Below, piece by piece: positions 8,566 through 23,551 of a stretch of 31,081 bases of DNA. A model generated the notes under the pieces. That model searched no databases. It was not told the DNA's origin and saw only the letters and a list, made by a program, of their open reading frames with translations. Origin of the DNA: an uncultured Clostridia bacterium. GTDB taxonomy: Bacteria > Bacillota > Clostridia > Oscillospirales > Ruminococcaceae. How positions within the stretch are numbered: the stretch's first letter is position 1; every line of letters begins with the position of its first letter. The stretch spans positions 1 through 31,081 of the forward strand of contig CANPXN010000031.1 in assembly GCA_947586185.1 (NCBI GenBank). Direction: 5' to 3'. The position numbers and the translations under genes are program-made.

Positions 8566-9506
8566 CAAAAGCTTTTGAGTGCATTCCCGAAAGGGAATGC
8601 CGAAAAGGCTTTTTTTATAGCTTTACGAAAGCTTTAGCAAAAGTTTATGTTCATTTCTTTGCTCCTGCAAAGAAACGAACCAAAGAAACAGGCAGCTCAA
8701 ACGCCGCAGGGCAGCAAGGCAACACGCACAAAACTTGCACGCAATCTGCTTGATTATTTTCCGCCATATTGCATAGAAACTCCTTGAAATACAAAAGTAT
8801 TCCTGCGTCGTTTCTATACAATCTGGCAAAAAATCCTGCGGCGCATCTTCCGCACAAGTTTTATACGTGTTGCCTTGATTTCGCACCCGGTAGAAACAAA
8901 TAGAAATCTGAAATTTTGCAAGCAAAATTTACAGACTTTCTATTTGCTTCTACATGGGGGTTACTTTAGTGATTTATGAAACATCTTTTTGATTGCTTGT
9001 ACTCATTGGCACTGTCCCTTGTACGCTCTGCTTGTAACTGTTACGTTAATTCTCCCACGGGGAGGCAAGGTTGAGTTCTACCCATTGCTGACTGAGGAGG
9101 CTTGGTCGGCATCGCTTTGCTCGCCTTATTCCTTGAAAGATTCTCCCATCTAAGCGGAGTCTTTGCTTTCTTTTCTTTTCTGCTCCCAGTAACCTGCGAT
9201 GTTTTTGCCGCTATGCGGCAAAAGAGCAAGCGGCGAGAGTTAAAAATGCGGAATGGGGGAGGGAGGTGAGTGGAAAGGGAGTGCAGAGGGAAAACCTACA
9301 GGAGGGAGGGGGAAATCCGCATTTTTGTTGGTTTTTCTCTTTCCCCCTCCCTCCTATAGGTTGTCCCTTTGCTTTTACCTAAGAGGTTTGTCTTCGCTTT
9401 CCCCAAAGCGAAAAAAGTTTTCCGGTCGCTTTCGTAAAGCGGCTAAAAAGTTTACCTATCGCTTTATTCAAAGCAATAAAAGTTTTCCCATAGCTTTTTC
9501 AAAAGC
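8566..9506. repeat. Dispersed structured non-coding element, copy C (carries an extra ~170-nt hairpin domain)
   Basis: The core 8649-9379 aligns with 5003-5570, except that 8710-8881 replaces 11 nt of copy B. The left end matches the left end of copy B. The right mini-hairpin array ends at the rpsT terminator. Confidence 0.85.
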
Positions 9507-10118: not shown

Positions 10119-10967
10119 ATGAATATTAGAACAGACCTTGCCCTTGAGGGGATAAACGCTGCAAAAGTCAGAGATGGAATACGCCGCACTGAAAGGGGAG
10201 AGGCATTTAAGATAACGGAGATAATAATCGAGGAGGACAGGTTCGGCGTTCCCATTGGAAAAAAGAAGGGCAGATATATAACCCTTGAGGGACAGCCGCT
10301 GGGTAGATTTTCGGATAATTACCGTGAAATGGCATATGAGCTTGCCCATGAAATAACGCCTCTTATTCCCGACGGACCTGTGCTTGTTGCAGGGATAGGA
10401 AACAGCGATATTACCCCCGACGCTTTGGGACCGCTGGCGGCAGCGCAGATTCTTGCCACAAGGCATCTCAAAAAGGAGCTTGGGGAGGAAGACGAATTTT
10501 TGTCCAGTCTTAGGCAGGTAAGCGTTCTTGCACCGGGAGTTCTGGGTCAGACCGGCATTGAGGCAGGGGAGCTTCTTTCATCGCTGGAAGAAAGCGTAAA
10601 GCCCTCCTCAATAATAGCGGTTGACGCTCTTGCATGCTCTGACGTAAACCGTCTTGGAACTACCATTCAGATATCCGACTCCGGTATTTCTCCGGGAAGC
10701 GGCGTTCAGAACAGCCGCAGGGAGCTTTCTAAGGAAACCTTAGGAGTACCTGTTATAGCCGTAGGAGTTCCCACAGTTGTGGACATGCACACCATTGTTC
10801 AGGGGCTTACGGGAAAACCGGTCAGCTCGTCGGTGCCCAATATGATGGTTACTCCGAGGGATACGGACAAGCTCACTGAAAGAGCGGCAGGACTTATCGC
10901 ATGCGGAATAAATCTTGCTTTGCACAGTGAGCTTGATTTTGAGGATATTCAGAATATTATGATGTAA
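10119..10967 (+). CDS. gpr: Germination protease GPR (peptidase A25)
   Basis: MNIRTDLALE at the N-terminus, the GIGN..ITPDALGP motif and a length of ~280 aa fit GPR. An AAAGGAG RBS precedes the ATG at 10119, so the longer track ORF start at 10086 is unlikely. Confidence 0.88.
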   Translation: MNIRTDLALEGINAAKVRDGIRRTERGEAFKITEIIIEEDRFGVPIGKKKGRYITLEGQPLGRFSDNYREMAYELAHEITPLIPDGPVLVAGIGNSDITPDALGPLAAAQILATRHLKKELGEEDEFLSSLRQVSVLAPGVLGQTGIEAGELLSSLEESVKPSSIIAVDALACSDVNRLGTTIQISDSGISPGSGVQNSRRELSKETLGVPVIAVGVPTVVDMHTIVQGLTGKPVSSSVPNMMVTPRDTDKLTERAAGLIACGINLALHSELDFEDIQNIMM

Positions 10968-11802
10968 AAAGTCTCCAGAGGCATGCCGCAGCGGCGCAGA
11001 GTATGATTCCGCAAAGCTCCGGTATAAGTACGGCTGCGGCAGTCCATTTAAGGCTGCCGGTTTCTTTTTTTACGGTAAGGCATGCTGTTGAACAAGGGAA
11101 GTGGAACAGTATCATAATTATCATACATAGCGCTGTAAGAGTGCTCCAGCCGTTGTTTACGAAAATTTCCTTCATGACTGCAAGGTCGCCTACCTCAACG
11201 ATTTTCCCCTGAGCTGTATATGCCATAATAATTATCGGGATAACTATTTCATTTGCCGGAAAGCCAAGGAAGAATGCAAGGAGAATAACGCCGTCAAGCC
11301 CTAAAAACAGTCCTATAGGCTCAAGTAACTGGGAGAGGTGGGAGAGCAGGGATGCGTCGGATATGTTTATATTTGCAAGAAGCCATATAAGAAGTCCAGC
11401 CGGAGCGGCGGCGGCACAGGCTCTTCCCAAAACGAAAATTGTTCTGTCAAAAATGGAGCGGACAATGACCTTTCCGATTTGCGGTCTTCTGTATGGCGGA
11501 AGCTCTAAGGTGAACGAGGATGGAACTCCCTTTAAAAGTGTGTGGGAGAGTATCCATGAAACGGCAAAGGTCATAAATATTCCGGCAAGGACTGCCAGAA
11601 GCAGCAGCGCTGAGGAGGCGACTGAGCCTGAAAATCCCTTTGATACGGCAAAAAACATTGCGATTATGGATATGAGCGCCGGAAAGCGTCCGTTGCATGG
11701 CACAAAGTTGTTGGTAAGTATAGCAATAAGCCTTTCCCTCGGAGAGTCGATTATTCGGCAACCGGTTATTCCTGCGGCATTGCAGCCAAAGCCCATGCAC
11801 AT
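10957..11802 (-). pseudogene. feoB: feoB, C-terminal (membrane) fragment, separated from the rest of the gene by the inserted element
   Basis: The ORF begins MCMGFGCNAAG..GCRIIDSPRERLIAILTNNFVPCNGRFP, the conserved gate/membrane region of FeoB. It has no RBS or G-domain of its own. It continues the reading frame of 21573-22828 once the element is removed. Confidence 0.9.
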
Positions 11803-11879
11803 GGATAGTATTAAACCGTTAGTAATTTATGCATACAGTTTATTGCCATGCTAAGCAAGGTGGTTAACCGTATGCCATT

Positions 11880-13508
11880 TTAGTTTATATACTCTTTGGT
11901 TTCGGATTTGCAGGTAAAGCGAAAATAAATTTTTATTTTCTGATGTTTGATTTTTTTGTTTCCTGACTTTTCATAATGTCCTTGGTACACGTCAATTCGT
12001 TCAATCAATTTAAAAAGCAGTTCTGAATTAAGTTCCTTGATGTCAGAATATTCATTAAGAAGATTAAAGTATTTTTGATATGCCTGTTTCTCAAGGGACT
12101 TATTTTCTTGCATCTCTGCATTTTTTTGACATTGCTTTAGCTTTTCCGCAAGCAGTTTACTTTCATTTTCATATTTTTCAAGAAGCTTATTAAAATTATC
12201 ATTGCTTAATCGACCGGAAAAGTTATCGTCATAAATTTTTTCAATTTTGCTGTCAGATTGTTTTATTTTTTTCTGCAATGTTTCCAATTCATCAGATGCT
12301 TTACTTCGCTTTTGGGTTTTGCTGTTTTCCTTTAAAACTTCATTTAAAATTTCCTGTTTGTCCTGTTCTGAAAGATTTATTTGTTCTCTCAGCGTATCAA
12401 GAACGATTTTATAAAGAATATCATAATCAATGAAATGATTTGTACAGGCTTTTGCACCTTTTAATTTATAAGCTCCGCATTCAAGGTTAGCTGTTGAGCC
12501 TTTTTTTCTTGTGCCGACAGTACTCATATTTTTACCGCAGTCGGCACATTTTGCGAGTCCTGAAAAAATATTTACAAAGCTGTTTTTCTTATTGTATGCT
12601 CTGCTCTGGGAATATCTTTGCACTACTTCAAAAGTTTCCTTGTCGATAATAGGTTCATGCGTATTTTCAACAACAAACCAATCGTCTTTGGATTTTGCAA
12701 TAGTAGTTTTAAGTCTGAAAGATACCTTTGTTGTTTTACCCTGTGCCATGTGACCTATGTACACTACATTTTTAAGCATTCGGGAAATAGTTCCAGCTCT
12801 CCATTCTCCGTCTGTTTTATATTTGTTCATATCAAGATGATATTTATTACAACGGTATGTAAGCGGTGAGGGTATATTTTTCATATTAAGATGTTTTGCT
12901 ATATCTGCCGGCTTATTTCCTTTTGAAGCCATGTAAAAAATTTCTTTTACAATGGGTGCGGTTTCTTCGTTAATAAGAAAATGATTTTTGTTTTCAGGGT
13001 CTTTGCAGTAGCCGTATGGAGCAAAATTACCTATGTAATTGCCTTCTTTCATTTTGACAGTAAAAGAAGAACGAATTTTTTTAGAAATGTCACGTGCGTA
13101 CATTTCATTAATAACATTTTTAAATGGTGCAATATCATTGTTTACAGCATTTTCAGAATCATAACCATCATTAATGGCAATATATCTTACCTGTTTTTTT
13201 GGAAAATACACTTCGGTATATTGTCCGGCTGTAATATAATCACGTCCTAAACGTGATAAATCCTTTGTGATAACGGTATTGATTTTATTTTCCTCAATAT
13301 CGTTAATCATTCGGTTAAAGCTTGGTCTGTCAAAGTTTGTGCCTGTGTAACCGTCATCAATATATTCATCATAAATGATGAAATTATTTTCCTTTGCAAA
13401 TGCAGTAAGCATTTTTCTTTGCGTTGTTATACTTGCACTTTCATTTTCTCCGTCTTCTCTTGACAATCTCATATATAAGGCTGCTATATAGCGTGGTTGC
13501 GGTTTCAT
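11880..13508 (-). CDS. Large serine recombinase (resolvase N-domain + recombinase domain + zinc ribbon + coiled coil)
   Basis: The 542-aa ORF has the catalytic-serine context AALYMRLSRED, then DGYTGTNFDRP and LSRLGRDY. It also has a Cys cluster (CADCGKNM...CGAYK....ACTNH) and a K/E-rich coiled-coil tail. An AGGAGG RBS is present. Confidence 0.92.
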   Translation of the reverse strand: MKPQPRYIAALYMRLSREDGENESASITTQRKMLTAFAKENNFIIYDEYIDDGYTGTNFDRPSFNRMINDIEENKINTVITKDLSRLGRDYITAGQYTEVYFPKKQVRYIAINDGYDSENAVNNDIAPFKNVINEMYARDISKKIRSSFTVKMKEGNYIGNFAPYGYCKDPENKNHFLINEETAPIVKEIFYMASKGNKPADIAKHLNMKNIPSPLTYRCNKYHLDMNKYKTDGEWRAGTISRMLKNVVYIGHMAQGKTTKVSFRLKTTIAKSKDDWFVVENTHEPIIDKETFEVVQRYSQSRAYNKKNSFVNIFSGLAKCADCGKNMSTVGTRKKGSTANLECGAYKLKGAKACTNHFIDYDILYKIVLDTLREQINLSEQDKQEILNEVLKENSKTQKRSKASDELETLQKKIKQSDSKIEKIYDDNFSGRLSNDNFNKLLEKYENESKLLAEKLKQCQKNAEMQENKSLEKQAYQKYFNLLNEYSDIKELNSELLFKLIERIDVYQGHYEKSGNKKIKHQKIKIYFRFTCKSETKEYIN

Positions 13509-13548
13509 ATTTTACCTCCTGAACCCAACCTATAACTTATATTATAGG

Positions 13549-13689
13549 CTAATTATACCATGTTTCAGGGCTTGTTTCAATATGAGTATTTAATATTAAT
13601 TCTTTTATTAATTCCTTAATGTTTTTATCTTTAAAATCCGTTTCTATAATGTAAATATCCTTATTTTCTTCAATACTTTCATTATCCAT
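13549..13689 (-). CDS. Small acidic ORF (46 aa) immediately upstream of the serine recombinase; candidate accessory/directionality factor
   Basis: My own translation: MDNESIEENKDIYIIETDFKDKNIKELIKELILNTHIETSPETWYN. A GGAGGTG RBS lies ~7 nt upstream. The ORF is co-oriented with, and 40 nt from, the recombinase ATG. No homology was recognised. Confidence 0.35.
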   Translation of the reverse strand: MDNESIEENKDIYIIETDFKDKNIKELIKELILNTHIETSPETWYN

Positions 13690-13791
13690 TAATAAGCACC
13701 TCCATATTAATGTTTATGTTTAAAGTGCTTTGCTATGCGTATAATTTTAGTATAATAATCCTTAAATTTGCTAATTGCAGAATAATAAAAT

Positions 13792-13847
13792 AAAAAAATA
13801 CTGTCAAGGGCACGAAGTGTGCATTTACCCTTGACAGTATTTTTTTA
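13792..13847. terminator. Bidirectional Rho-independent terminator
   Basis: A perfect 13-bp stem (atactgtcaaggg / cccttgacagtat) is flanked by an A6 run on the left and a T7 run on the right. Confidence 0.7.
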
Positions 13848-13936
13848 TGAGTTATAATGTGCAATCAAATTTAAGGATTTATTGTCATATATAAGTATCG
13901 AATGAATAATATGTAACAATGAAATTTGACAAAAAT

Positions 13937-13963
13937 ATTCGCAGAGTTAGTCACTCTGCGAGT
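13937..13963. other. Candidate tyrosine-recombinase core site L (10-7-10: ATTCGCAGAG TTAGTCA CTCTGCGAGT)
   Basis: Inverted 10-bp arms surround an asymmetric 7-bp spacer. The reverse complement of site R matches it at 26 of 27 positions. Confidence 0.5.
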
Positions 13964-14158
13964 AGAATTTCTAATATTTTATAGATTTATTCTACAACAT
14001 TGAAGAATAAAAGTCAACTCGATTTGTCAATATTTACTATATTTCTGCTTTTTTACTAATTAAGTTACAATTTTTTTGTATAGGTTATATGCTAAAATGG
14101 CTTTAAATTAATCTATTCGGGGTCAAAATATGGGTCAATTATTCAGGAGGTTGTGATA

Positions 14159-15247
14159 ATGCCAAGACGTGGGGAAAATATCAGAAAAAGAACGGACGGA
14201 CGCTGGGAGGGACGCTATATTGAATCCTATTCAAACAGCGGAAAAGCTTGTTATCGCTCTGTTTATGGCACAACATATTCAGATACAAAAGAAAAGTTAA
14301 AGGAATACAAAAAGCTATGTAAAAATACAGTGAGTAAAATAACAGTTAAAGACCTTTGTATAGAATGGCTTAAAATGAAAGAGGACGCTTTAAAACCGTC
14401 CAGTTATGTGAAATACTATAGCTCTATAGAAAAACATATAATACCATGCTTTAAAAGCGTTAAAGCGATGTATTTAACATGTGACCTTGTAAATGATTTT
14501 GTACAAGAAATAAGTTATTTGTCAGAAAAGACAATTCACGATTTACTTACACTATTTATTCAGATAATAAAATACGGACAGTCAAAAAATTATATCGGCT
14601 ACTTTGATTTTAACTCTATTGCATACCCTAAAATCGCAAGTAAGGAATTGGCAGTGTTTAAAAGTTCAGAAGTTACAAGACTTGTAAGCTATGTACAGAT
14701 AACCTTTAAAATAGAGAAAATAGGCGTTTTGCTGTCATTGTTTATGGGCATTCGATTAGGAGAAATTTGTGCATTAAAATGGAAAGATGTAAATTTTTCC
14801 GAAGAAACTATCAGAATTGAAAAAACAATGCAGAGAATAAAAAATATTGATGAAAATGCAGAATCCAAAACTAAGATTGTAATAGACATGCCAAAAAGTC
14901 AAAAATCAATAAGGGATATTCCAATACCGTCATTTATACTTGAGTTATTGAAAAAATATAAATCAGCTGGAAACAATTATTTGCTTACGGGTACGCCGGA
15001 GTTTATAGAACCACGAGTATATCAGGAAATGTTTAAAAGGTATTTGAATGAAGCAGGGGTAGAGGATATAAATTTTCATGCTTTAAGACATACCTTTGCC
15101 ACGAGAGCGGTAGAACAGGATTTTGACGTAAAAAGCCTTAGTGAAATACTAGGGCATTCAAGCGTGAAGTTTACACTTGAAAGATATGTACACCCATCAG
15201 ATGAGTATAAAAAGAAGAATCTTGAAAAGCTGAAAATTTTCTATTAA
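14159..15247 (+). CDS. Tyrosine site-specific recombinase/integrase
   Basis: The N-terminus has an arm-binding-type motif (RKRTDGRWEGRY). The C-terminal catalytic signature includes GIRLGE, HALRHTFATRA, LGHSSVKFTLERYVH. An AGGAGG RBS lies 8 nt before the ATG at 14159. Confidence 0.9.
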   Translation: MPRRGENIRKRTDGRWEGRYIESYSNSGKACYRSVYGTTYSDTKEKLKEYKKLCKNTVSKITVKDLCIEWLKMKEDALKPSSYVKYYSSIEKHIIPCFKSVKAMYLTCDLVNDFVQEISYLSEKTIHDLLTLFIQIIKYGQSKNYIGYFDFNSIAYPKIASKELAVFKSSEVTRLVSYVQITFKIEKIGVLLSLFMGIRLGEICALKWKDVNFSEETIRIEKTMQRIKNIDENAESKTKIVIDMPKSQKSIRDIPIPSFILELLKKYKSAGNNYLLTGTPEFIEPRVYQEMFKRYLNEAGVEDINFHALRHTFATRAVEQDFDVKSLSEILGHSSVKFTLERYVHPSDEYKKKNLEKLKIFY

Positions 15248-15308
15248 TGGTCAAAATTATGGTCAGAAAATCTCATCAATCCCTTATTTGCGTTGTTTAT
15301 AAACGAAA

Positions 15309-15335
15309 ATTCGCAGAGTGACTAACTCTGCGAAT
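15309..15335. other. Candidate tyrosine-recombinase core site R (10-7-10: ATTCGCAGAG TGACTAA CTCTGCGAAT), inverted relative to site L
   Basis: The arms are perfectly palindromic. The 7-bp spacer TGACTAA is the exact reverse complement of the site L spacer TTAGTCA. Confidence 0.5.
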
Positions 15336-15407
15336 AAGGTCAGGCTTTTGGGTTATTTTTAGGTTAACCGAAAAATGAGGAATTATGCAAGTTTAGGGGG
15401 AGTGTTT

Positions 15408-15992
15408 ATGAGTAAAAAGAAAAAAGTATTTATTTTTATTGTAGCAATTTTATTGATTATAGGAATAATAACCAGTTTGTATATCTTTTTTATTATGAAA
15501 AAAGAAAAGTCAGCATTGATATTTGAGACGAGTATGAACGCTATTATTAGTGGGGAATATGATGATAACTTTAAGTACATTAGTTTAGATGGGAAAATTC
15601 AACATAATTTATCTAATGGTGATATATCATCTGCAATAATGGAAAATATTGATTATAAAATTATTGATGTAGAAGAAAATGAAGATTCTTCTATTGTTAC
15701 TGCGGAGTTTACCTATCCTGATGCTGTTGAAATACAAAATAAAATCGTAAATGAAAATTCGAAAATTTCAGAAAAAGACTTACTTTCTAAGTTTCTTTCC
15801 ATTATAAAGTCAGGTGATTTTTCTACAGTAAATTGTACTGCAAAAATTCCATTAATTTGCTTAAATAATGAATGGTATATTTTAGAATCAGAACAGTTCA
15901 GTAATATAATTACTGGTGGAATATATTCGGAGTACATGAAACAAAATGAAGAAGTTTATCAGAAGCTTAAAGAAGTAGAAAGCAAAAAATGA
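15408..15992 (+). CDS. Hypothetical membrane-anchored protein (N-terminal TM, extracytoplasmic domain)
   Basis: MSKKKKVFIFIVAILLIIGIITSLYIFFIM forms a signal-anchor. An AGGGGGA RBS precedes the ATG at 15408. No family was recognised. Confidence 0.6.
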   Translation: MSKKKKVFIFIVAILLIIGIITSLYIFFIMKKEKSALIFETSMNAIISGEYDDNFKYISLDGKIQHNLSNGDISSAIMENIDYKIIDVEENEDSSIVTAEFTYPDAVEIQNKIVNENSKISEKDLLSKFLSIIKSGDFSTVNCTAKIPLICLNNEWYILESEQFSNIITGGIYSEYMKQNEEVYQKLKEVESKK

Positions 15993-16007
15993 AAGGTAAT
16001 AAATTAA

Positions 16008-17306
16008 ATGAAGATTAGACAGTTAATGACTTTTTTTATAGCATGGTTTGTAATGCTAAATTTTTGTTCTCAAGTAACTTTTGCAGATGAGACTTATGAA
16101 AAATGTATTATACCTATTATAAGTGATAAGACAGAAGAACTTACTTGGAATGGACTAAAAAAAGATGGGATAATTTATATTACTTTAGAAGATGCCTGCA
16201 ATCTAACTGGAAGCAAAATTGTTACAAATTCTAATAAAGAATTTGTAACGGAGCGGAACACTGTTAAAATATTTGGAAATTTAGAAGATAATGCAGCTTG
16301 TCTAAGTATTACTGAAATGAGCGCCAATTTGTTTTCGTGGGATGGTAAAAATTTAACATACCCACAAGGTGGACTTTCCAACAGAATATTGTATGAACAG
16401 GCTTTTCATATGGATATGACATATTTTGAAGGTAAAGTATGGGTAGATTTATTTTCTTATGTCAATTGTTTAGGTGCTGACATTAATATTCTTACAGAAG
16501 ATTCTGAAAGTTATAAATATCTTGGTAAAATAAATCTAACGCAATTTGATGGCTGTTATGCTATTGAAATTGGAATTCCGTTTGATGAAATATACTTAGA
16601 ATTTATGAATCATTCTGAACTTCGGTTTGAGTGGATTGACTGGGGACAAGAGGTTGGTGTTTCTGTTGCAAAAGGCTATGATGCAGTAATTAACGATTAT
16701 CAGAATATATTTACTCAAACTTATTATGATAAGTTTAATTCTTCAGATGCCTACTATGATGTTTTATTGAAAGTACTTCAATGTAAACCAATTGATTTTG
16801 GTGAAGAAAATGATTTGCTTGATAACTTGAAAAAGATTCAGGAAGAATATGACAGTCAAGTGAATAGGGGGTTCTTTGTTGCTGATAGATTTTTAAAGAG
16901 CGATGATCCACTTGTTAAAGAAGCAAAAAGTCACCTTGAATTATCAAAAGTGATTTATTCTGCGGCGACTGATTCAGCCAAAGTAGAACAAAAATACATG
17001 ACACTCATTGATACTGTAAGTAAAATGAATGGGATTGAGTTGTCAATTCTTGAAAAGAGTTTACTTGATAATAATCGATATTTACAGATATATGAATATG
17101 ATATTAATAAAACTGGAGACGAACAAGAAAAGATTTTTGTATTAGTTTATGTTGATAACATTCAAAAAAATCCGGATGGTACAATAAGTTGGGACATTGA
17201 ACTTGAATCAACAGGTTATAATAAATACGATGATTTAATAACCGATTATGTTACTTCTGAAAAAGAATTTTATAATGTTACAGAAATAAAAGATAAAGAA
17301 GAATAA
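16008..17306 (+). CDS. Hypothetical secreted protein (432 aa)
   Basis: The N-terminus is signal-peptide-like (MKIRQLMTFFIAWFVMLNFCSQVTFADE). The gene is 15 nt downstream of the previous gene. No family was recognised. Confidence 0.6.
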   Translation: MKIRQLMTFFIAWFVMLNFCSQVTFADETYEKCIIPIISDKTEELTWNGLKKDGIIYITLEDACNLTGSKIVTNSNKEFVTERNTVKIFGNLEDNAACLSITEMSANLFSWDGKNLTYPQGGLSNRILYEQAFHMDMTYFEGKVWVDLFSYVNCLGADINILTEDSESYKYLGKINLTQFDGCYAIEIGIPFDEIYLEFMNHSELRFEWIDWGQEVGVSVAKGYDAVINDYQNIFTQTYYDKFNSSDAYYDVLLKVLQCKPIDFGEENDLLDNLKKIQEEYDSQVNRGFFVADRFLKSDDPLVKEAKSHLELSKVIYSAATDSAKVEQKYMTLIDTVSKMNGIELSILEKSLLDNNRYLQIYEYDINKTGDEQEKIFVLVYVDNIQKNPDGTISWDIELESTGYNKYDDLITDYVTSEKEFYNVTEIKDKEE

Positions 17307-17341
17307 ATGAATTTATAAAAATAACTGGAGAATACGTAAAA

Positions 17342-17812
17342 ATGATTATATACTTTTTTAATCCTACAGGTATAATTATAGCGGCTGTTATTATAATATT
17401 AGTAATGGCAGCCGGATTAATGGAAATAATAACAGTTTTATCAGTAATAGTATACATAATTTTGGAAATACTTCTTACAATTTTTAAATATGAATATATT
17501 AATTTGCCATCATATAAATACGCTACATTAGTTATAAGAATTATTGTATGGGGAATATCTATCAATAGATTTTTTGCTCAAATAGTAAAATATTATAATG
17601 AAAACTCACTTGGTGGATTAATAGTTGGTGGACTTGTAATGCTTTTTGGAGTATATGCATGGCTTTTAATTCTTAGTATTTACTATGAAATAGAATTAAA
17701 ATATTTAGAGTCAAAATCTTATAATGGAATTATAGACGTGTCTTTGTCACTGATAATACCTATAATAGTCGGAATCACAATGGTAAATGCTGTTCATTCA
17801 TTACTTTTTTAA
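17342..17812 (+). CDS. Hypothetical polytopic membrane protein (about 4-5 TM)
   Basis: The 156-aa ORF is dominated by I/L/V-rich hydrophobic stretches. It is the last gene of the plus-strand operon, just before a terminator. Confidence 0.55.
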   Translation: MIIYFFNPTGIIIAAVIIILVMAAGLMEIITVLSVIVYIILEILLTIFKYEYINLPSYKYATLVIRIIVWGISINRFFAQIVKYYNENSLGGLIVGGLVMLFGVYAWLLILSIYYEIELKYLESKSYNGIIDVSLSLIIPIIVGITMVNAVHSLLF

Positions 17813-17861
17813 ATTCAATTATAAACGAATTGATTTCTTACTCCCCACAAAAATAATAATC

Positions 17862-17905
17862 AAAAAAATTCTGTATGTTCTTTCAAAACATACAGAATTT
17901 TTTTG
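17862..17905. terminator. Bidirectional terminator between convergent operons
   Basis: The stem attctgtatgtt / aacatacagaat is flanked by an A7 run and a T7 run. Confidence 0.7.
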
Positions 17906-17933
17906 CATTTCAGCAATTAAGGAGTTAAGAATA

Positions 17934-18836
17934 TTAATATTCGCTTTGCTCATCAAAACTTTCAAGATATTCAATACGTTTAGTAATTCTTGGGTGACTG
18001 GATATCATTTTTTGAACAATAGTACTATTATCCCCTAAAGAAATCTTTTCCAGTAAATATAAAGCTTCTATCATTTCACGGTCATAGCCTATATCATAAG
18101 AAAATTTGTCAGCGCTAAATTCATTTTTTCTGCTGTTTATCATCATAACTGTATGGAATCCAAATGTTAAGAATAAAATGGACATTTCCAGTATAAATCT
18201 TGAAATTCTTATTATAAAGCTTAATATGTTTCTTTTCCCATTAATTATTTTTAATATATACTCCCAAAAAAGCAGCATCAGCTTATACATGAAAATGATT
18301 ATTGTAAAAATACCGTTTCCAATTATTGCGTATAAACTTGCTATTGTATCGCCATGTACAATGTGTGCTATTTCATGTCCAATAATTGCCTTTAGTTCCT
18401 CTTCTGTAAATGTCTGCATTGCTCCTTTTGTAACTGCAATAGTGTGTCTGCCCAGAGCCATAGCATTAACTGTCATATTATCTATTATGCAGATTTCAAT
18501 TTTATTAAGATATTTATTTTTGATTTTTGCCTGTTCGTAGACTTCTTCAAATAACGGTAAAATATATTCTTTTTCCCTTGATGTTTCAAGCGGTCTGACA
18601 TTATTAAGAAATCTTAACAATTTTTCTCCTGCTGGAGTAAAAGCACACATTATTGATAATGTATAAATTATCAAGAGAAAAATAAAAGATTTAAAAGTGT
18701 TGCCGAAAAGATAGAAAGATATGTAAAAATAAGTAACAGTACAAACAAAATAAAATTTGTTATTTCCCCAAAAAGTTAAAATATCATCTATAATTTCAAT
18801 TATATATTTAAAAAAATTCTTTAACTCAATATTCAT
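17934..18836 (-). CDS. M48-family (HtpX-like) zinc metallopeptidase, membrane-embedded
   Basis: The HEIAH zinc motif appears in the context NAMALG...IAVTKG......EELKAIIGHEIAHIVHGD. Hydrophobic segments lie on both sides. An AAGGAG RBS is present. Confidence 0.75.
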   Translation of the reverse strand: MNIELKNFFKYIIEIIDDILTFWGNNKFYFVCTVTYFYISFYLFGNTFKSFIFLLIIYTLSIMCAFTPAGEKLLRFLNNVRPLETSREKEYILPLFEEVYEQAKIKNKYLNKIEICIIDNMTVNAMALGRHTIAVTKGAMQTFTEEELKAIIGHEIAHIVHGDTIASLYAIIGNGIFTIIIFMYKLMLLFWEYILKIINGKRNILSFIIRISRFILEMSILFLTFGFHTVMMINSRKNEFSADKFSYDIGYDREMIEALYLLEKISLGDNSTIVQKMISSHPRITKRIEYLESFDEQSEY

Positions 18837-18847
18837 AACGCTACTCC

Positions 18848-20236
18848 TTAAAACGGTTTAAAGATTTTAAGTTTACTGTGAATATTTAAATCCCTTGAAA
18901 GGAAAATGCCGTTTCCTGTTTCCAGCCTTTTTATATCGTCTGGATGATATACATATTCTCTTACACATTTAGCAGAACCAAAACCGGTTTGTGAAATATC
19001 AAGTCCCTTTTGCTGTAGCTGATATGTTACTTCCATAGTTTGTCTTGTGCCTAAAATATTCGCCCAGTTTTCGGAATTTACTGCGCTGTTCTGACGCAAT
19101 ACAAGATAATTATTGCAATTTTCAATAATTTGCTGTGTAAAGTCTTCATTTTCCGCAATTGCAAGGTCGGAAAGACTTTGTGTGGCAAGAACGCAAGTAA
19201 CGTTTGCACTTCTTGATTTATTTACAAGGTCAATTAACGTCTTTGAAGCGTATACATTGATTTCATCAAAAATAAAAAACGTTCTCTTATAATTATTTTG
19301 AAATAGCTTACTTATTGCTTTTTTACTGTCAATTAAAATCAGTCTGCCGAAAGCCTGAGAAATTTCAGGATAAATAAGGGGGTTCAAAATAAAAACAATA
19401 ATAGCACTTTGTTTTAATGCAGTATAAATATCAATGCCGTTATCGTCAAAAATATATCCTAATTCACTTTCGACAATAGTAGAAAATCTTGCAATAGAAT
19501 TTTCTGCAACCTTGCCGGAGGTTTTACAAATTTCTATATTTTCAAGATGTTCAGGTTTATCTATTAATCCTTGCTTTAAAAGTATTGCAGACAGCTCTTT
19601 AAATTTATCAATATTCATGAATTTAACAATAGTTTTCAAGGTCAATTTCATTTCAGCTTTATGCATCAGCATTATAAGCTTTTGTAAATATCTTTCTGCA
19701 TTTAATTTATAATGCTCCTCAGACCAGTCCGTCATATTTATCAGCATATCTTTTGCAATAGTTGGAGATGCATTGCAAAACGGATTGTACTTGTCAGACT
19801 GTTCAATATCAGTAAGATTTATTGTATACATCGGCTTGTTCTTTGTGTTCAGTTTGTTTACAATATCAATTAAGCTGTTTTGGTTTGTATCACCTTTACC
19901 GTCAATAATCAAAAGGGGAAAATTCTTGTCCATTGCGTTTTTTATGTAATTGCTGAGAGCGACAGTTTTCCCGCTCCCTGTAGTACCGCAAACAAAAACA
20001 TGTTTTGAATTATCAGAACAGAAAACAGGCTTTTTACCGTTATAACCAATTAAAGCCGCATTATCCTTGTTTAAGTTAGGTTTTTTCATTTTAAATTTCA
20101 CCTTTCTTAGTTCTTTAGTAAAATTAAAAATTTTTCTAAGTTGTAAATGCCTTTTTTCTCCGTAAATTATCATTAAAGTAGCAATAAAAATAATAAGAGA
20201 TACTAAAATATACTGGAATTTTTCAACTCCGTTCAA
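18848..20236 (-). CDS. Type IV coupling protein-like ATPase (TraD/TraG/VirD4 family) with an N-terminal TM anchor
   Basis: Walker A is VCGTTGSGKT, Walker B-like is FFIFDEINVY, and an ATQSLSDL motif is present. An N-terminal hydrophobic helix is present. The apparent TTG start overlaps the upstream stop (TTGA). Confidence 0.75.
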   Translation of the reverse strand: MNGVEKFQYILVSLIIFIATLMIIYGEKRHLQLRKIFNFTKELRKVKFKMKKPNLNKDNAALIGYNGKKPVFCSDNSKHVFVCGTTGSGKTVALSNYIKNAMDKNFPLLIIDGKGDTNQNSLIDIVNKLNTKNKPMYTINLTDIEQSDKYNPFCNASPTIAKDMLINMTDWSEEHYKLNAERYLQKLIMLMHKAEMKLTLKTIVKFMNIDKFKELSAILLKQGLIDKPEHLENIEICKTSGKVAENSIARFSTIVESELGYIFDDNGIDIYTALKQSAIIVFILNPLIYPEISQAFGRLILIDSKKAISKLFQNNYKRTFFIFDEINVYASKTLIDLVNKSRSANVTCVLATQSLSDLAIAENEDFTQQIIENCNNYLVLRQNSAVNSENWANILGTRQTMEVTYQLQQKGLDISQTGFGSAKCVREYVYHPDDIKRLETGNGIFLSRDLNIHSKLKIFKPF

Positions 20237-20865
20237 ATAAACTTACTAACATAATTTTTAACCTCCTCAAGATTTATAATTTCTGTATTAGTATAAATCA
20301 TCTGACTATCAATTAATATCTGTTTTATTTTTGGCTGAGAATCCGGAACAATCCAGAATTGAGTATCATAAGCCAAAAAATTATCTTTTATAATATTTTC
20401 AAGTCTTGTTTTTGCTTTTAAAGATAGTTCAACTTCAACGCAGTTTGTTTTATCAATATCATTAAAAATAAAATCAGGTCTGTGTTTACGTATTCCAAAA
20501 CCGTCTGAGCGGTGTAATTGTTTTTCTGTTGTAATTTTATCAAAATCAATATTATTTTTCAGATTAAAGTATATAGCAGCATCTATTACAGTCATATCAT
20601 GAACAATCTGTTCAACCTTGATTTTTTCCATTCTCTTGGGAGCGTTAATTAATATCTTGCCTTTGGAAGTAATAGAATAAATACTTGGAACGCCGTACAA
20701 ATATTTTTTTCGGCTAATATAATCGGCTTCAATTAAAAGTTTAAGTCTTCTGTCTGCCGAACGCTGACCGGAAAAGCCGGACAAAAATTTAATATGTTTT
20801 CCAGTACAAGCTCTCCATCTGTCGATTTCTTTCATAATCTTATAATCTCTTTCAGTCAATCTCAC
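20233..20865 (-). CDS. Replication-relaxation family protein (putative mobilization/relaxase-like)
   Basis: The N-terminal wHTH-like pattern is LTERDYKIMKEIDRWRACTGKHIKFL.....RSADRRLKLLIEADYISRK...G.PSIYSITSKG. The start is GTG with a GGAGGTGG RBS. It is the first gene of the operon with the T4CP. Confidence 0.6.
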   Translation of the reverse strand: MRLTERDYKIMKEIDRWRACTGKHIKFLSGFSGQRSADRRLKLLIEADYISRKKYLYGVPSIYSITSKGKILINAPKRMEKIKVEQIVHDMTVIDAAIYFNLKNNIDFDKITTEKQLHRSDGFGIRKHRPDFIFNDIDKTNCVEVELSLKAKTRLENIIKDNFLAYDTQFWIVPDSQPKIKQILIDSQMIYTNTEIINLEEVKNYVSKFI

Positions 20866-20913
20866 AAATTAACCACCTCCTGTATTATAAAAACTAACTA
20901 CATAAACAATACC

Positions 20914-21056
20914 TATAACAAAAAACTCGCTGTGAACTTTCAAATATAATTTATTATATGTATTGTATGTTGTTATAGTGGGGTCTCGTATGAAATAGGA
21001 GACCCCACTATAACAACATCTATTGAAAGTGCCTAAACAGCGAGGTTTTTGTTATA
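20914..21056. other. Large compound palindrome, candidate oriT or regulatory region
   Basis: There is a perfect 19-bp inner stem (20969-20987 / 20999-21017). Outer imperfect arms lie at about 20916-20934 and 21037-21055. The palindrome starts 50 bp upstream of the replication-relaxation gene. Confidence 0.4.
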
Positions 21057-21096
21057 TTTAATATATATTGCGTGGCGTGTGTAGTTAGAACGCTTT

Positions 21097-21333
21097 TTGT
21101 TCCTGTTGTTGGAATAGGTATAAAATATAGATATAAGGTCGGAGGTGTTATTTATGAATAAAAAATATCGGATTATCATAGGCTAATCATCAGCACAAGA
21201 GATATGTTTTAGGCATGTAACAGAGAGTGGGGGAGTCTCTTTATCAAGAAGACAAAAAACTATATTTAGTTGAGTGAAAATTAAATATATAACAAAAGTA
21301 CAAGAACCTAAAATTCTTGTACTTTGTTTTTTT
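21097..21333 (+). ncRNA. Orphan small transcription unit: promoter, strong SD, 10-codon mini-ORF and terminator (small RNA or peptide)
   Basis: The promoter is TTGTTC-16 nt-TATAAA (21097-21124), followed by GGAGGTG and ATG at 21154 (MNKKYRIIIG, stop at 21184-21186). A 12-bp hairpin plus T7 terminator lies at 21295-21333. Confidence 0.35.
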
Positions 21334-21572
21334 ATAAATATTTAGAACTTCTTAAGAAAAATAACAGCATATATTTTTCAAGAATGCATTTTTAATTAAG
21401 AGTATAAATTTTAATATAAGTTATAAGGTCGGGATTTATTTTATTCTTGCAAACGGTTTTACACCATACCATGTATAGTAAAAAAGCGACTGCTATAATT
21501 GCATCCAGTTTAATCCCATGCTATGCATGGAAAGAAAGTGTTTGCAAAAATGGCATCCAGTTTTTCGCCAAC

Positions 21573-22828
21573 CACATAGTAAGCGCCTGTTTTCCGCATG
21601 CTCCGCAGCGGCGGAAGTGCTTATCAAGATTAAAGGCGACACGGGGCAGATATCCGGAATCCTCAAGTAGAGTGAACAACGGGAAAAATATTGCCATAGG
21701 CGGCAGCATAACCGATACTACCCAGGCAAGGACCCTGTATATGCCGTTTATCAGCATATCCGTAAGCCATTCCGGAGAGTTTACATATATAAGGAGCTTT
21801 TCCAGCTTTCCGCCAACAAAGAACAGTCCACGGCTCAATAGCTCTGACGGATAGTTTGCGGCAGTGATAGTAAGCCAGAAAACCACTGCCAGCATCATGA
21901 GCATTATGGGGATTCCAAAAATACGGCTTGTGAGGATCCTGTCTATTTTTCTGTCCCTTTCGTAGTATTTTTCATTTGCAAAGCTTGTGACCTTTCCGGC
22001 GATCTCCTCGCCTCGCTTTATAATTGCTGATATTATCTCATCACTGATCTTTTCTTTGGTAAAGCCTTCTACAGAACGGCTCTTAAGCTCACAGCCTGTG
22101 CACTGGCATATCCCTTCGCATAGCTTTTCATCATAGTCAATAAGCTTTACCGCTGTCCAGAATGGGGAAAGCCTGCCTCCTAAAAGAGGTGATATTTCCC
22201 GGGAAAGAGCTTCTGCCTCTTTTTCTATTTCCGGAGGATAGCATACAGGCCTTATGAAGTCCATTTCCTTTGCAACCATTTCGTCAAGAGCATCCATAAG
22301 CTCTGGAAGACCTTCTCCGCTTCTTGCGGTAACTCCCACTACCGGAACTGAAAGCTCATGTGAAAGAGCCTCAAGGTCTATGGTTATGTTTTTCTTTTTA
22401 GCCTCGTCAAGAAGATTTACACATACAATAGTTTTAGGGGTTATTTCTATTGTCTGAAGCACAAGATTCAGATTGCGTTCTATACAAGTTGCATCGCATA
22501 CAACGATAACTGCATCAGGATTTTCAAAGCATACAAAATCTCTTGCGACCTCCTCTTCGGCAGAGTGAGCCATAAGAGAGTATGTTCCCGGGAGATCCAC
22601 GAGAATATAGCTTTTATCCCCGTGTGAGCATCTTCCACATGCGTTTGTTACAGTTTTGCCTGCCCAGTTTCCTGTATGCTGTTTCATGCCGGTAAGCGCA
22701 TTGAACACTGTGGATTTTCCTACGTTTGGATTTCCGGCAAGGGCTACTACATATTCGTTTTCAGCTCTGTTTAAAAAAAGGCCGCTGTCAACTGCTCCTT
22801 TTCCTGTTGAATCGGAAGTAAGTCCCAT
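21573..22828 (-). pseudogene. feoB: feoB, N-terminal fragment (G-domain and first membrane segments)
   Basis: The start at 22828 has a GGAGGA RBS. The G-domain motif is GNPNVGKSTVFNALTG, followed by ..DLPG..SL. FeoB-like sequence runs to ...GACGKQALTM at the junction. The frame then continues for 17 foreign codons to a stop at 21521. Confidence 0.9.
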
Positions 22829-22896
22829 AGTTTTTCCTCCTTGCAAAATAAATGCTATACAAAAAACTATATGAATCTTCCGGGGTGTCCTATTAC

Positions 22897-22920
22897 AAAA
22901 AAACGAGGCTTTAAGCCTCG
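22897..22920 (-). terminator. Rho-independent terminator after the coiled-coil gene
   Basis: On the minus strand, the hairpin cgaggc-ttaaa-gcctcg is followed by T7. Confidence 0.65.
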
Positions 22921-22940
22921 CTGAAAAAATCAATATGTAA

Positions 22941-23504
22941 TTAGGTAAGAACATTAAGCTTTTTAAGCTCATCAATAAGACAGTCAAGCCTTTCGCCGTT
23001 GTAATTTACCGCAGTTCTTGTGATTTCTGCTTCTTCCTTCATCTCTGATATGTCATTTTCTATCTTTGTTACTCTCTTGTTCATATCGGACATTTCAGTT
23101 TTCAGGGTTGATACGTCTGATTTAAGGTCTGATACGTCAGTTTTCAGGTTTTCTACATCTGTTTTCAAACCTGATACATCGGTTTTCAGTTCTGCTACGT
23201 CTGTTTTAAGACCTGCTACATCGGTTTTCAGTTCTGCTACGTCTGTTTTAAGACCTGCTACGTCTGTTTTAAGACCTGCTACATCGGTTTTCAACTCTGC
23301 TACGTCAGTTTTCAAACCTACAACATCGGTTTTCAACTCTGCTACATCTGTTTTTAAACCTGCTACATCGGTTTTCAACTCTGCTATATCTGATTTCATT
23401 TCAGACATTTCAGATTTCATTTCTGACATTTCGGACTTCATGTCTGAAAAGCCGATAGTTAAGGTTTTTAGAGCGGAAAGCACTTCTGTTTCAAAATCGT
23501 TCAT
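22941..23504 (-). CDS. Heptad-repeat coiled-coil protein (18 consecutive 7-aa units, consensus AELKTDV/AGLKTDV)
   Basis: 187-aa ORF. An AGAGGTGA RBS precedes the ATG at 23504. Residues 20-145 are uninterrupted heptads with L and V at the a/d positions. Confidence 0.75.
   Translation of the reverse strand: MNDFETEVLSALKTLTIGFSDMKSEMSEMKSEMSEMKSDIAELKTDVAGLKTDVAELKTDVVGLKTDVAELKTDVAGLKTDVAGLKTDVAELKTDVAGLKTDVAELKTDVSGLKTDVENLKTDVSDLKSDVSTLKTEMSDMNKRVTKIENDISEMKEEAEITRTAVNYNGERLDCLIDELKKLNVLT
23070..23447. repeat. 21-bp (and 42-bp) tandem repeat array inside the coiled-coil gene
   Basis: The unit gttttcagttctgctacgtct/gttttaagacctgctacatcg is visibly iterated about 18 times. Confidence 0.85.
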
Positions 23505-23522
23505 GAGATCACCTCTGTAAAT

Positions 23523-23551
23523 ATTATAAAGCATAAAATATAAAAAGTCAA
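23523..23551 (-). promoter_or_regulatory. Near-consensus sigma-A promoter of the coiled-coil gene
   Basis: Minus strand reads TTGACT (23551-23546), 17 nt, then TATAAT (23528-23523). Confidence 0.65.

Follow-up and report, generated by a model that had tools for sequence, protein, structure and literature searches.

A tyrosine recombinase gene bracketed by inverted core sites in an uncultured Clostridia bacterium is a candidate invertible-promoter switch

We analysed a 31,081-nucleotide stretch of DNA (referred to here as the window) from an uncultured Clostridia bacterium of the Ruminococcaceae (GenBank assembly GCA_947586185.1, contig CANPXN010000031.1), in which a tyrosine recombinase gene lies between two inverted copies of a 27-bp site at positions 13937 to 15335. 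On balance, and at slightly better than an even chance, we read this segment as an autonomous invertible-promoter switch that currently rests in its OFF state. The switch would be built from a recombinase gene of the lambda Int and Tn1549 Int type, candidate arm repeats that flank this gene, a sigma-70 promoter that points outward on the opposite strand, and the two inverted core sites. We observed this anatomy in the window, its conservation and co-variation across a family of related loci, and natural inversion at a pair of sites of the same type elsewhere.

Site L (13937-13963) reads ATTCGCAGAG-TTAGTCA-CTCTGCGAGT and site R (15309-15335) reads ATTCGCAGAG-TGACTAA-CTCTGCGAAT, both being core-type recombination sites with a 10-7-10 layout. 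A first-pass annotation of this DNA had proposed these two 27-bp sites, and the sequence read back identical in coordinates and letters. It had also described the 7-bp spacers as exact reverse complements and the sites as sharing 26/27 positions when compared as inverted repeats and 23/27 when compared as direct repeats; recomputation gave the same values. The inverted repeat is perfect over 26 nt (13936-13961 paired with 15311-15336). When up to three mismatches were allowed, the 10-7-10 pattern matched only sites L and R in the window and gave 0 matches in 100 shuffles. The reverse-complementary loops are not what a direct duplication would yield. As in known invertons, the segment is enclosed by inverted repeats, and its only substantial open reading frame (ORF), at 14159-15247, is that of the tyrosine recombinase, which agrees with the earlier description of this gene as the only one between the sites.

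The recombinase (14159-15247, forward strand) has 362 amino acids (aa) and, as modelled, three domains, with matches to PF00589 and PF14659. The start codon assigned to it previously is sound, with an ATG at 14159 and AGGAGG 8 nt ahead of it. Residues R199, K222, H307, R310, H333 and Y343, at the catalytic-motif positions, are invariant in the family, and the window recombinase, which keeps the full catalytic set, is by its sequence a candidate for the cognate site-specific recombinase. An AlphaFold model with a pLDDT of 85 predicts N-terminal strands at residues 8-10, 16-24 and 30-37 followed by a helix at residues 40-55; Pfam returned nothing for residues 1-65 and NCBIfam returned no named family for the protein. 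The top Foldseek matches were Tn1549 Int (TM 0.64/0.72) and lambda Int, and the structural alignment to lambda Int was full-length, at 356 columns. Sequence identity to lambda Int and to the Tn1549 and Tn916 integrases is only 15-20%. The Pfam and Foldseek matches together give the enzyme the catalytic and core-binding domains of a heterobivalent integrase. The cassette is not of the serine-invertase (Hin/Gin) type: its enzyme is a tyrosine recombinase, and the serine recombinase of the window sits outside the repeats.

We then scanned for relatives with one genome per species and kept 80 of 578, from Ruminococcus, Oscillospiraceae, Lachnospiraceae and others. Carriers in culture include Ruminococcus albus 7 (pRUMAL02, NC_014825.1, about 139.2-140.7 kb), Butyricicoccus pullicaecorum DSM 23266 (NZ_FUXW01000001.1, about 105.3-106.7 kb) and Porcipelethomonas ammoniilytica (NZ_JAOQKH010000006.1). 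A perfect or near-perfect inverted repeat of 17-36 nt surrounds the recombinase gene in 74 of 90 loci (56 of them distinct), over protein identities of 37-96%, and its distances are fixed at 170-280 bp ahead of the start codon and 60-130 bp past the stop codon. The family site consensus is TTTCGyArAG-N7-CTyTrCGAAA, and the inverted-repeat scores of the family loci are always well above their direct-repeat scores. We found that the arms co-vary with the protein (window TCGCAGAG, P0037 TCGCTTAG, P0033 TCTCAAAG, L099 TCGAAGAG). In P0037, a 67% identical homologue (loci L009-L018), the upstream site is ATTCGCTTAG-TTAGCTC-CTAAGCGA and the downstream site is ATTCGCTTAG-GAGCTAA-CTAAGCGAAT, both arms having changed together relative to the window. 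The P0033 site, ACTCTCAAAG-TTTATTA-CTTTGAGAG, is partnered by a TAATAAA version, and the L099 site, AAGTCGAAGAG-TTGGCTA-CTCTTCGACT, by its complement. Non-palindromic sites are common in the family, as in L021 (TTCGTAGAG-TATTCTC-ATTGACGA). This retention of pairing with co-variation across a large family bears out the first-pass view of sites L and R as tyrosine-recombinase core sites in inverted orientation. The self-contained design, which had been called unusual, is so relative to textbook switches, but it is no one-off, since it belongs to a widespread family.

Some further loci of this family were noted. In L111-L113 the recombinase of an 81%-identical relative is split (pseudogenised) and both sites are kept, with the arms and spacer of the window. 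L064 carries a 109-nt inverted repeat (502-610 / 1948-2056) of approximately 93% identity that reaches approximately 80 nt past the core site into the outer flank. The truncated homologue P0088 was considered as a recombination junction and rejected, as it is a split pseudogene.

Both sites can be drawn as hairpins, with folding energies of about -16 to -18 kcal/mol and z-scores near -4, and both have a terminator-like score on the minus strand, where stems of 9-11 bp precede T-rich tails, as the first-pass annotation had pointed out. The tail of site L on the minus strand (ATTTTTGTCAA, 13926-13936) comes after the hairpin in transcripts that run leftward; being outside the cassette, it would keep its place on inversion. 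The minus-strand tail at site R (TTTCGTTTAT, 15299-15308) lies on the inner side of the site and would move with the cassette. Such features would suit ordinary intrinsic terminators or insulators that guard the recombinase gene from leftward transcription and were duplicated by chance or locally, an explanation that we consider highly improbable. There would be nothing to terminate, as the ORF list of the window holds no minus-strand gene between 13964 and 17860 and none upstream of the hairpins. In just 23 of 55 family loci do both sites form a perfect stem of 6 bp or more, the hairpin not being conserved in the remaining 32, and the inverted repeat of L and R is found in all. Moreover, the loops are reverse-complementary rather than identical, and the arms follow the recombinase. 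Loss of the hairpin with retention of L/R identity speaks against terminators and for core sites with identical overlaps set for inversion; a terminator as the conserved function was rejected on the 23/55 stem retention. Comparison of the loci suggests that conservation acts on the match between sites L and R in inverted orientation rather than on the hairpin. Among 21 hairpin-forming loci, a T-run past the hairpin was found toward the cargo in none and leftward in nine.

We found a candidate promoter inside the cassette, TTGACT-17-TAGAAT, on the minus strand at 14017-13989. The -10 element stops 27 nt short of site L, through which the promoter would fire leftward. In 47 of 56 loci the strand opposite the recombinase carries an equivalent promoter, which is often a 12/12 match (TTGACA-17-TATAAT) and whose -10 element stops 25-40 nt short of the inner edge of site L; just 6 of 56 loci have a match on the other strand of this region. 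By sigma-70 consensus match, the cassette has the internal promoter directed outward across a repeat that is a feature of invertons. It also has a target gene directly beyond the repeat: the forward-strand cargo operon at 15408-17812, comprising three ORFs (194, 432 and 156 aa), begins 73 nt past site R, as had been stated, and is the presumed regulated target. Across the family, a co-directional ORF starts 0-150 nt past site R in approximately 42 of 50 loci; on the left side, neighbouring genes favour neither strand (27 of 50).

The leader between site R and the cargo (15336-15407, forward strand) has no T-run after the hairpin and ends in the ribosome-binding site (RBS) GGGGGAG; its block GGAATTATGCAA is kept in P0033 and in a solo-site locus described below. 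A lack of any convincing promoter for the operon had been noted before, and indeed no promoter-like site is present on the forward strand of the leader. The leader also holds a mini-ORF of three codons (ATG CAA GTT TAG, 15386-15397), whose stop codon overlaps the cargo RBS. The first-pass annotation had expected inversion to uncouple the operon. Since the internal promoter points away from the operon at present, inversion would most likely couple the operon to it, and, as far as the sequence can tell, the transcription logic proposed earlier is probably reversed, with inversion joining the operon to a promoter. That annotation was right about the site pair but missed two conserved parts of the cassette, this internal minus-strand promoter and the tandem GTCA repeats.

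These repeats occur on the forward strand as two tandem GGTCA-N7-GGTCA pairs, one just ahead of the recombinase RBS (14121-14137) and one directly past the stop codon (15249-15265), the second in direct orientation relative to the first. In the family, GTCA-N7-9-GTC(A/G) is found upstream of the RBS on the recombinase strand in 38 of 56 loci and downstream of the stop codon on the same strand in 27 of 56, with 0 of 56 on the minus strand at either place and a background of 0.005 per window. Given the N-terminal domain of the recombinase and its alignment to Tn1549 Int and lambda Int, the modelled fold suggests that the repeats are plausible arm-type sites for that domain.

Outside site L we found a second promoter that the first-pass annotation did not see, a 12/12 match (TTGACA-16-TATAAT) at 13831-13858 on the forward strand, which reads into the cassette; only about 12-15 of 56 family loci have a counterpart. 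Site L is therefore placed between two head-on promoters, 13831-13858 on the forward strand and 14017-13989 on the minus strand. This placement, and the 10-7-10 symmetry typical of dimer operators, raise the question whether the sites are operators at which the recombinase or another dimeric regulator represses the facing promoters with no strand exchange. We regard this as very unlikely. An operator needs neither reverse-complementary spacers nor two 26-nt-identical sites 1.4 kb apart, the catalytic residues are invariant in the family, and the same type of site bounds DNA that inverts.

The outer promoter overlaps a perfect palindrome (13790-13848, outside the cassette) with 21-nt arms, a 17-nt loop and a TTGACA in each arm. 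Rightward it provides the 12/12 promoter, and leftward a 10/12 match toward a 46-aa ORF and the serine recombinase. The palindrome forms a divergent promoter region and might in addition serve as a bidirectional terminator or an operator. Its arms co-vary in L009, a locus of the 67%-identity relative, and three Logan contigs begin exactly at 13790.

Our reading of the cassette as an invertible-promoter switch implies the following mechanism. The recombinase would bind the four half-sites and probably bridge to the internal GTCA repeats, and strand exchange over the identical 7-bp overlaps would flip the segment. The present orientation would be OFF for the strong promoter, which would fire leftward; in this clade its transcript would form the site L hairpin after approximately 20 nt and then run into AUAUUUUUGUC. 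The cargo operon would receive only transcripts that read through from the recombinase gene or from the outer promoter. The flipped orientation would be ON, with the internal promoter approximately 50 nt upstream of site R and its transcript crossing the hairpin and then AAUAAGG, with no U-run, into the leader, the RBS and the operon. In that state, transcripts from the outer promoter would meet the hairpin followed by UUUUCGUUUAU, a terminator formed by the moved T-run. We infer the flipping of the cassette, the identity of the ON state, binding to the GTCA repeats and the terminator effects.

A metagenome scan with a degenerate site pattern yielded a solo site and a 218-bp element that lacks a recombinase. 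The 218-bp element (L127 6053-6316; L118 52-314) is bounded by TTTTCGTATAG-TTTGTTA-CTCTGCGAAAA and TTTTCGCAGAG-TAACAAA-CTCTGCGA. Its site form is TTTTCG(T/C)A(T/G)AG-N7-CTCTGCGA, and its arms are the same as those of the window. L118 carries the interior flipped, exactly from site to site, relative to the six contigs L124, L127, L128, L130, L141 and L150, the two orientations coming from different assemblies. Downstream of the element are NusG/KOW-like genes and a glycosyltransferase (polysaccharide) operon, and an insertion sequence with a DDE transposase adjoins it. The first-pass proposal of a self-inverting switch fared in two ways: inverted sites of the same type do bound a segment that is seen both ways elsewhere, and inversion of the window cassette itself went unseen.

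Several observations weigh against the switch. The internal promoter of the window matches the consensus at 10 of 12 positions. No homologue of the recombinase family lies within 6 kb of the 218-bp element, so an enzyme would act on it in trans, and only the identical arms would link that element to the enzyme studied here. The solo 10-7-10 site (L114 4775-4861, also L119, L125, L148, L158 and L160) is at an unrelated chromosomal locus, where a small ORF and a gene with an RNHCP domain follow it, and has no partner within at least 6 kb. Approximately 20 nt of its outer-left flank and its 58-nt leader are 95% identical to the flanks of the P0033 cassette (site R and leader). It may be a target used in trans, or else a scar left by a deletion.

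The searches for flipped copies carry most of this weight. Orientation was counted on the assembled contigs that we inspected; some look-ups merged similar places, and a few contigs were left out. Look-ups with the exact recombinase and first cargo proteins returned no flipped window element in 14 and 16 contigs, and exact-protein look-ups likewise returned no flipped P0037 in 24 contigs and no flipped P0033 in 14. A census of 52 metagenome loci gave approximately 20 complete cassettes and 12 partial junctions, all in the reference state; flank-swap BLAST over approximately 100 loci gave 586 same-side matches and 0 swapped; and a scan of IMG/VR returned a single ordinary cassette and no flipped copy. 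In all assembled cassettes that bear a recombinase (approximately 30 contigs of the window element and more than 100 relatives) the internal promoter points away from the cargo, and both orientations, a feature of invertons, were found only for the 218-bp element, which has the same arms and no recombinase. In favour of the switch, the outer repeat edges are exactly where two contigs, and no others, begin and finish (L079, 1378 bp; L099, 1408 bp), which means that the assembly graph branches there. Contig ends were nevertheless rejected as general proof of inversion, because a module that occurs in several contexts also breaks contigs: in P0033, four 1618-bp contigs correspond to the module common to its two contexts, one behind a large serine recombinase in feoB and one beside cotJC. 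Assemblies report the majority state, and a strongly OFF-biased switch would give such a one-orientation picture. The flipped junctions predicted in silico contain AAAAATATTCGCAGAGTTAGTCACTCTGCGAATTTTCGTTTAT and AGAAATTCTACTCGCAGAGTGACTAACTCTGCGAATAAGGTCAGG and, as written out for read matching, are GACAAAAATATTCGCAGAGTTAGTCACTCTGCGAATTTTCGTTTATAAAC and TTAGAAATTCTACTCGCAGAGTGACTAACTCTGCGAATAAGGTCAGGC; the reference junctions lie at 13920-13985 and 15290-15350. Samples with the window element include those of runs ERR10663686-ERR10663689.

The uniform orientation would also fit real sites around a cassette that is effectively fixed, whose recombinase works in trans on small elements, solo sites or cargo exchange and whose flanking pair serves autoregulation or is a by-product. 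Small invertible elements and solo sites that share the arms and have no recombinase nearby favour this explanation, as do the three assemblies in which the solo site occurs together with a same-core cassette (ERZ1673722, OCPR01 and OJMH01) and the hypervariable cargo, with homology that breaks at or just past site R. We nonetheless judge a fixed cassette unlikely. The simplest explanation for perfect identity of the two sites over 20-36 nt at each of approximately 55 diverged loci is that recombination between L and R is selected for, the outward promoter at a fixed distance from site L has no consistent target unless the segment flips, and no third copy of the site lies within approximately 6 kb of the cassette at any locus.

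We also asked whether the cassette is a minimal integrative element (an integrase with attP arms) inserted in a palindromic attB-like site, with L and R as attL and attR and with excision and integration in place of inversion. The arm-like repeats lie inside, beside each core site, as in an integrated element of the lambda or Tn916 type, and the best structural match, Tn1549 Int, tolerates heterologous crossover regions. The solo site resembles an empty integration site, L079 and L099 are bounded exactly by the repeats, and the same module is found in different contexts. However, excision and integration need or make direct overlaps or unrelated coupling sequences, and the direct attL/attR overlaps of heterobivalent integrases were not found here: the spacers are exact reverse complements in the window and at every family locus examined. 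The homology between contexts also passes site L to the outer palindrome and continues approximately 60 nt beyond site R, which makes the mobile unit larger than repeat to repeat. Its left limit against relatives of the window is the palindrome at 13790-13848, the left boundary of the module common to contexts, and its right limit is exactly 15335 against P0037 and approximately 60-80 nt later, near the start of the first cargo ORF, against P0033. The solo-site locus was never occupied by a cassette in 10 contigs, and integration gives no role to the outward promoter or to the closely apposed downstream gene. Taken together, an integrative element appears quite improbable, and the mini-transposon or integration reading was disfavoured because the spacers are never direct.

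The cassette itself lies within a mobilizable element of approximately 9.7 kb (about 11803-21520) that splits the minus-strand gene feoB into a C-terminal part (10957-11802) and an N-terminal part (21521-22987). The feoB junction is occupied by a large serine recombinase with DUF4368 (11880-13508), which from this position is likely the integrase of the element, leaving the tyrosine recombinase with no obvious integrase role. The element also encodes an M48 peptidase, a TrwB/TraG-like coupling protein (similar to type IV coupling proteins) and a MobC-like protein. The first cargo protein (194 aa) has a hydrophobic segment at its N-terminus; PADLOC, Pfam and NCBIfam returned no family and no defence system for any of the three cargo proteins. 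Past site R, the cargo of the family is hypervariable and includes XRE regulators, BspA-type leucine-rich-repeat proteins, an S8 peptidase, sortase, Wzy, dockerin proteins, a dynamin-like protein, patatin, an Erm-type methylase and RepA_N.

The P0037 element is inserted approximately 100-170 bp away in feoB. The whole element occurs in both orientations relative to the feoB halves (L009, L011 and L016 versus L010, L012-L015, L017 and L018), with the same end sequence, ATGGCTGACTAC, at either feoB junction. Elsewhere in the window, a non-coding block of approximately 140 nt at 8730-8880 shares 76-85% identity with the stretch of P0037 that separates site R from the first cargo gene (L009 7290-7440); Rfam gave no match anywhere in the window, this block included. 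A hairpin with a 19-bp stem (GTTGTTATAGTGGGGTCTC...GAGACCCCACTATAACAAC) at 20967-21019, in the non-coding right end near the genes for the MobC-like and coupling proteins, could be an origin of transfer (oriT) or a terminator. A coiled-coil ORF at 22941-23534 contains internal repeats of approximately 42 nt, with staggered self-matches at 23044-23396.

By analogy, the window cassette resembles fimS and the Bacteroidales invertons in function, Hin/hix in layout, and FLP/FRT in enzyme class and self-bracketing sites. Escherichia coli fimS (FimB/FimE) and the Bacteroidales invertons likewise place a promoter on a short segment within inverted repeats, use a tyrosine recombinase and switch an adjacent operon, in their case one for surface structures, with one state strongly favoured. 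Their recombinase is encoded outside a 300-bp element with repeats of 9-20 bp and has no arm-binding domain, whereas the window cassette encloses its recombinase gene and candidate arm sites in 1.4 kb between full 10-7-10 sites and is carried on mobile elements ahead of hypervariable cargo. The Salmonella Hin/hix segment also holds its recombinase gene and an outward promoter, between 26-bp imperfect palindromes, but it relies on a serine recombinase, a Fis-bound enhancer and a 2-bp crossover rather than on a tyrosine recombinase and a 7-bp overlap. FLP of the yeast 2-micron plasmid is a tyrosine recombinase whose gene lies between its own inverted arm-spacer-arm sites (13-8-13); it differs in that the FRT sites are in 599-bp plasmid repeats, inversion serves copy-number amplification, and FLP has no arm-binding domain. 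With the Tn1549 and Tn916 integrases and lambda Int the window system shares, as modelled, the three-domain heterobivalent fold, along with a 7-bp crossover and tandem repeats that are candidate arm sites, but those enzymes integrate and excise, and the overlaps of their att sites are direct or heterologous rather than reverse complements of each other.

Within Clostridia, the RecV switches of Clostridioides difficile (cwpV, flgB and cmrRST) invert through a tyrosine recombinase, and we liken them to the window family by enzyme class and mechanism, not by sequence relatedness. In the cwpV switch a leader terminator is formed or not (PMC2784873), which resembles the movable T-run of the window cassette, and RecV, whose gene lies elsewhere, works in trans on many switches of 150-300 bp (PMC5903667). 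The nearest published lead, in the parts of the hCom2 PhaseFinder survey available to us, is inverton group 139 with invertase group 35 in Clostridia, described there as elements of approximately 230 bp with repeats of up to 26 bp and a nearby group of tyrosine recombinases/integrases (PMC11892184). By that description, and not by repeat sequence, its size is close to that of the 218-bp element (L127/L118), and its recombinase lies outside the element. Our literature search found no description of a self-bracketed tyrosine-recombinase promoter cassette.

We tentatively put forward, as a possibility that is still rather doubtful, that these cassettes are autonomous invertons: portable units, each combining a recombinase, arm sites, a promoter and two core sites, that stand ahead of hypervariable cargo on mobile elements of gut Clostridia, with arm and spacer specificities that are lineage-specific and orthogonal. 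Their recombinases may also drive recombinase-less elements and solo sites that have the same arms, as an autonomous transposon serves its non-autonomous copies. The cargo classes at the family loci are surface proteins, regulators, a resistance methylase and conjugation genes. A 1.4-kb cassette with a whole gene inside would probably escape standard inverton finders. If the cassettes do not flip, inverted core sites that are perfectly kept around an integrase gene would still need explaining. If they do flip, the family would offer many compact pairs of recombinase and site, with different co-evolved specificities, for genetic memory devices. Cargo of mobilizable and conjugative elements, such as the Erm-type methylase and surface proteins, would then be expressed in subpopulations only, and phase variation in gut Clostridia would gain a widespread and portable class of switch.

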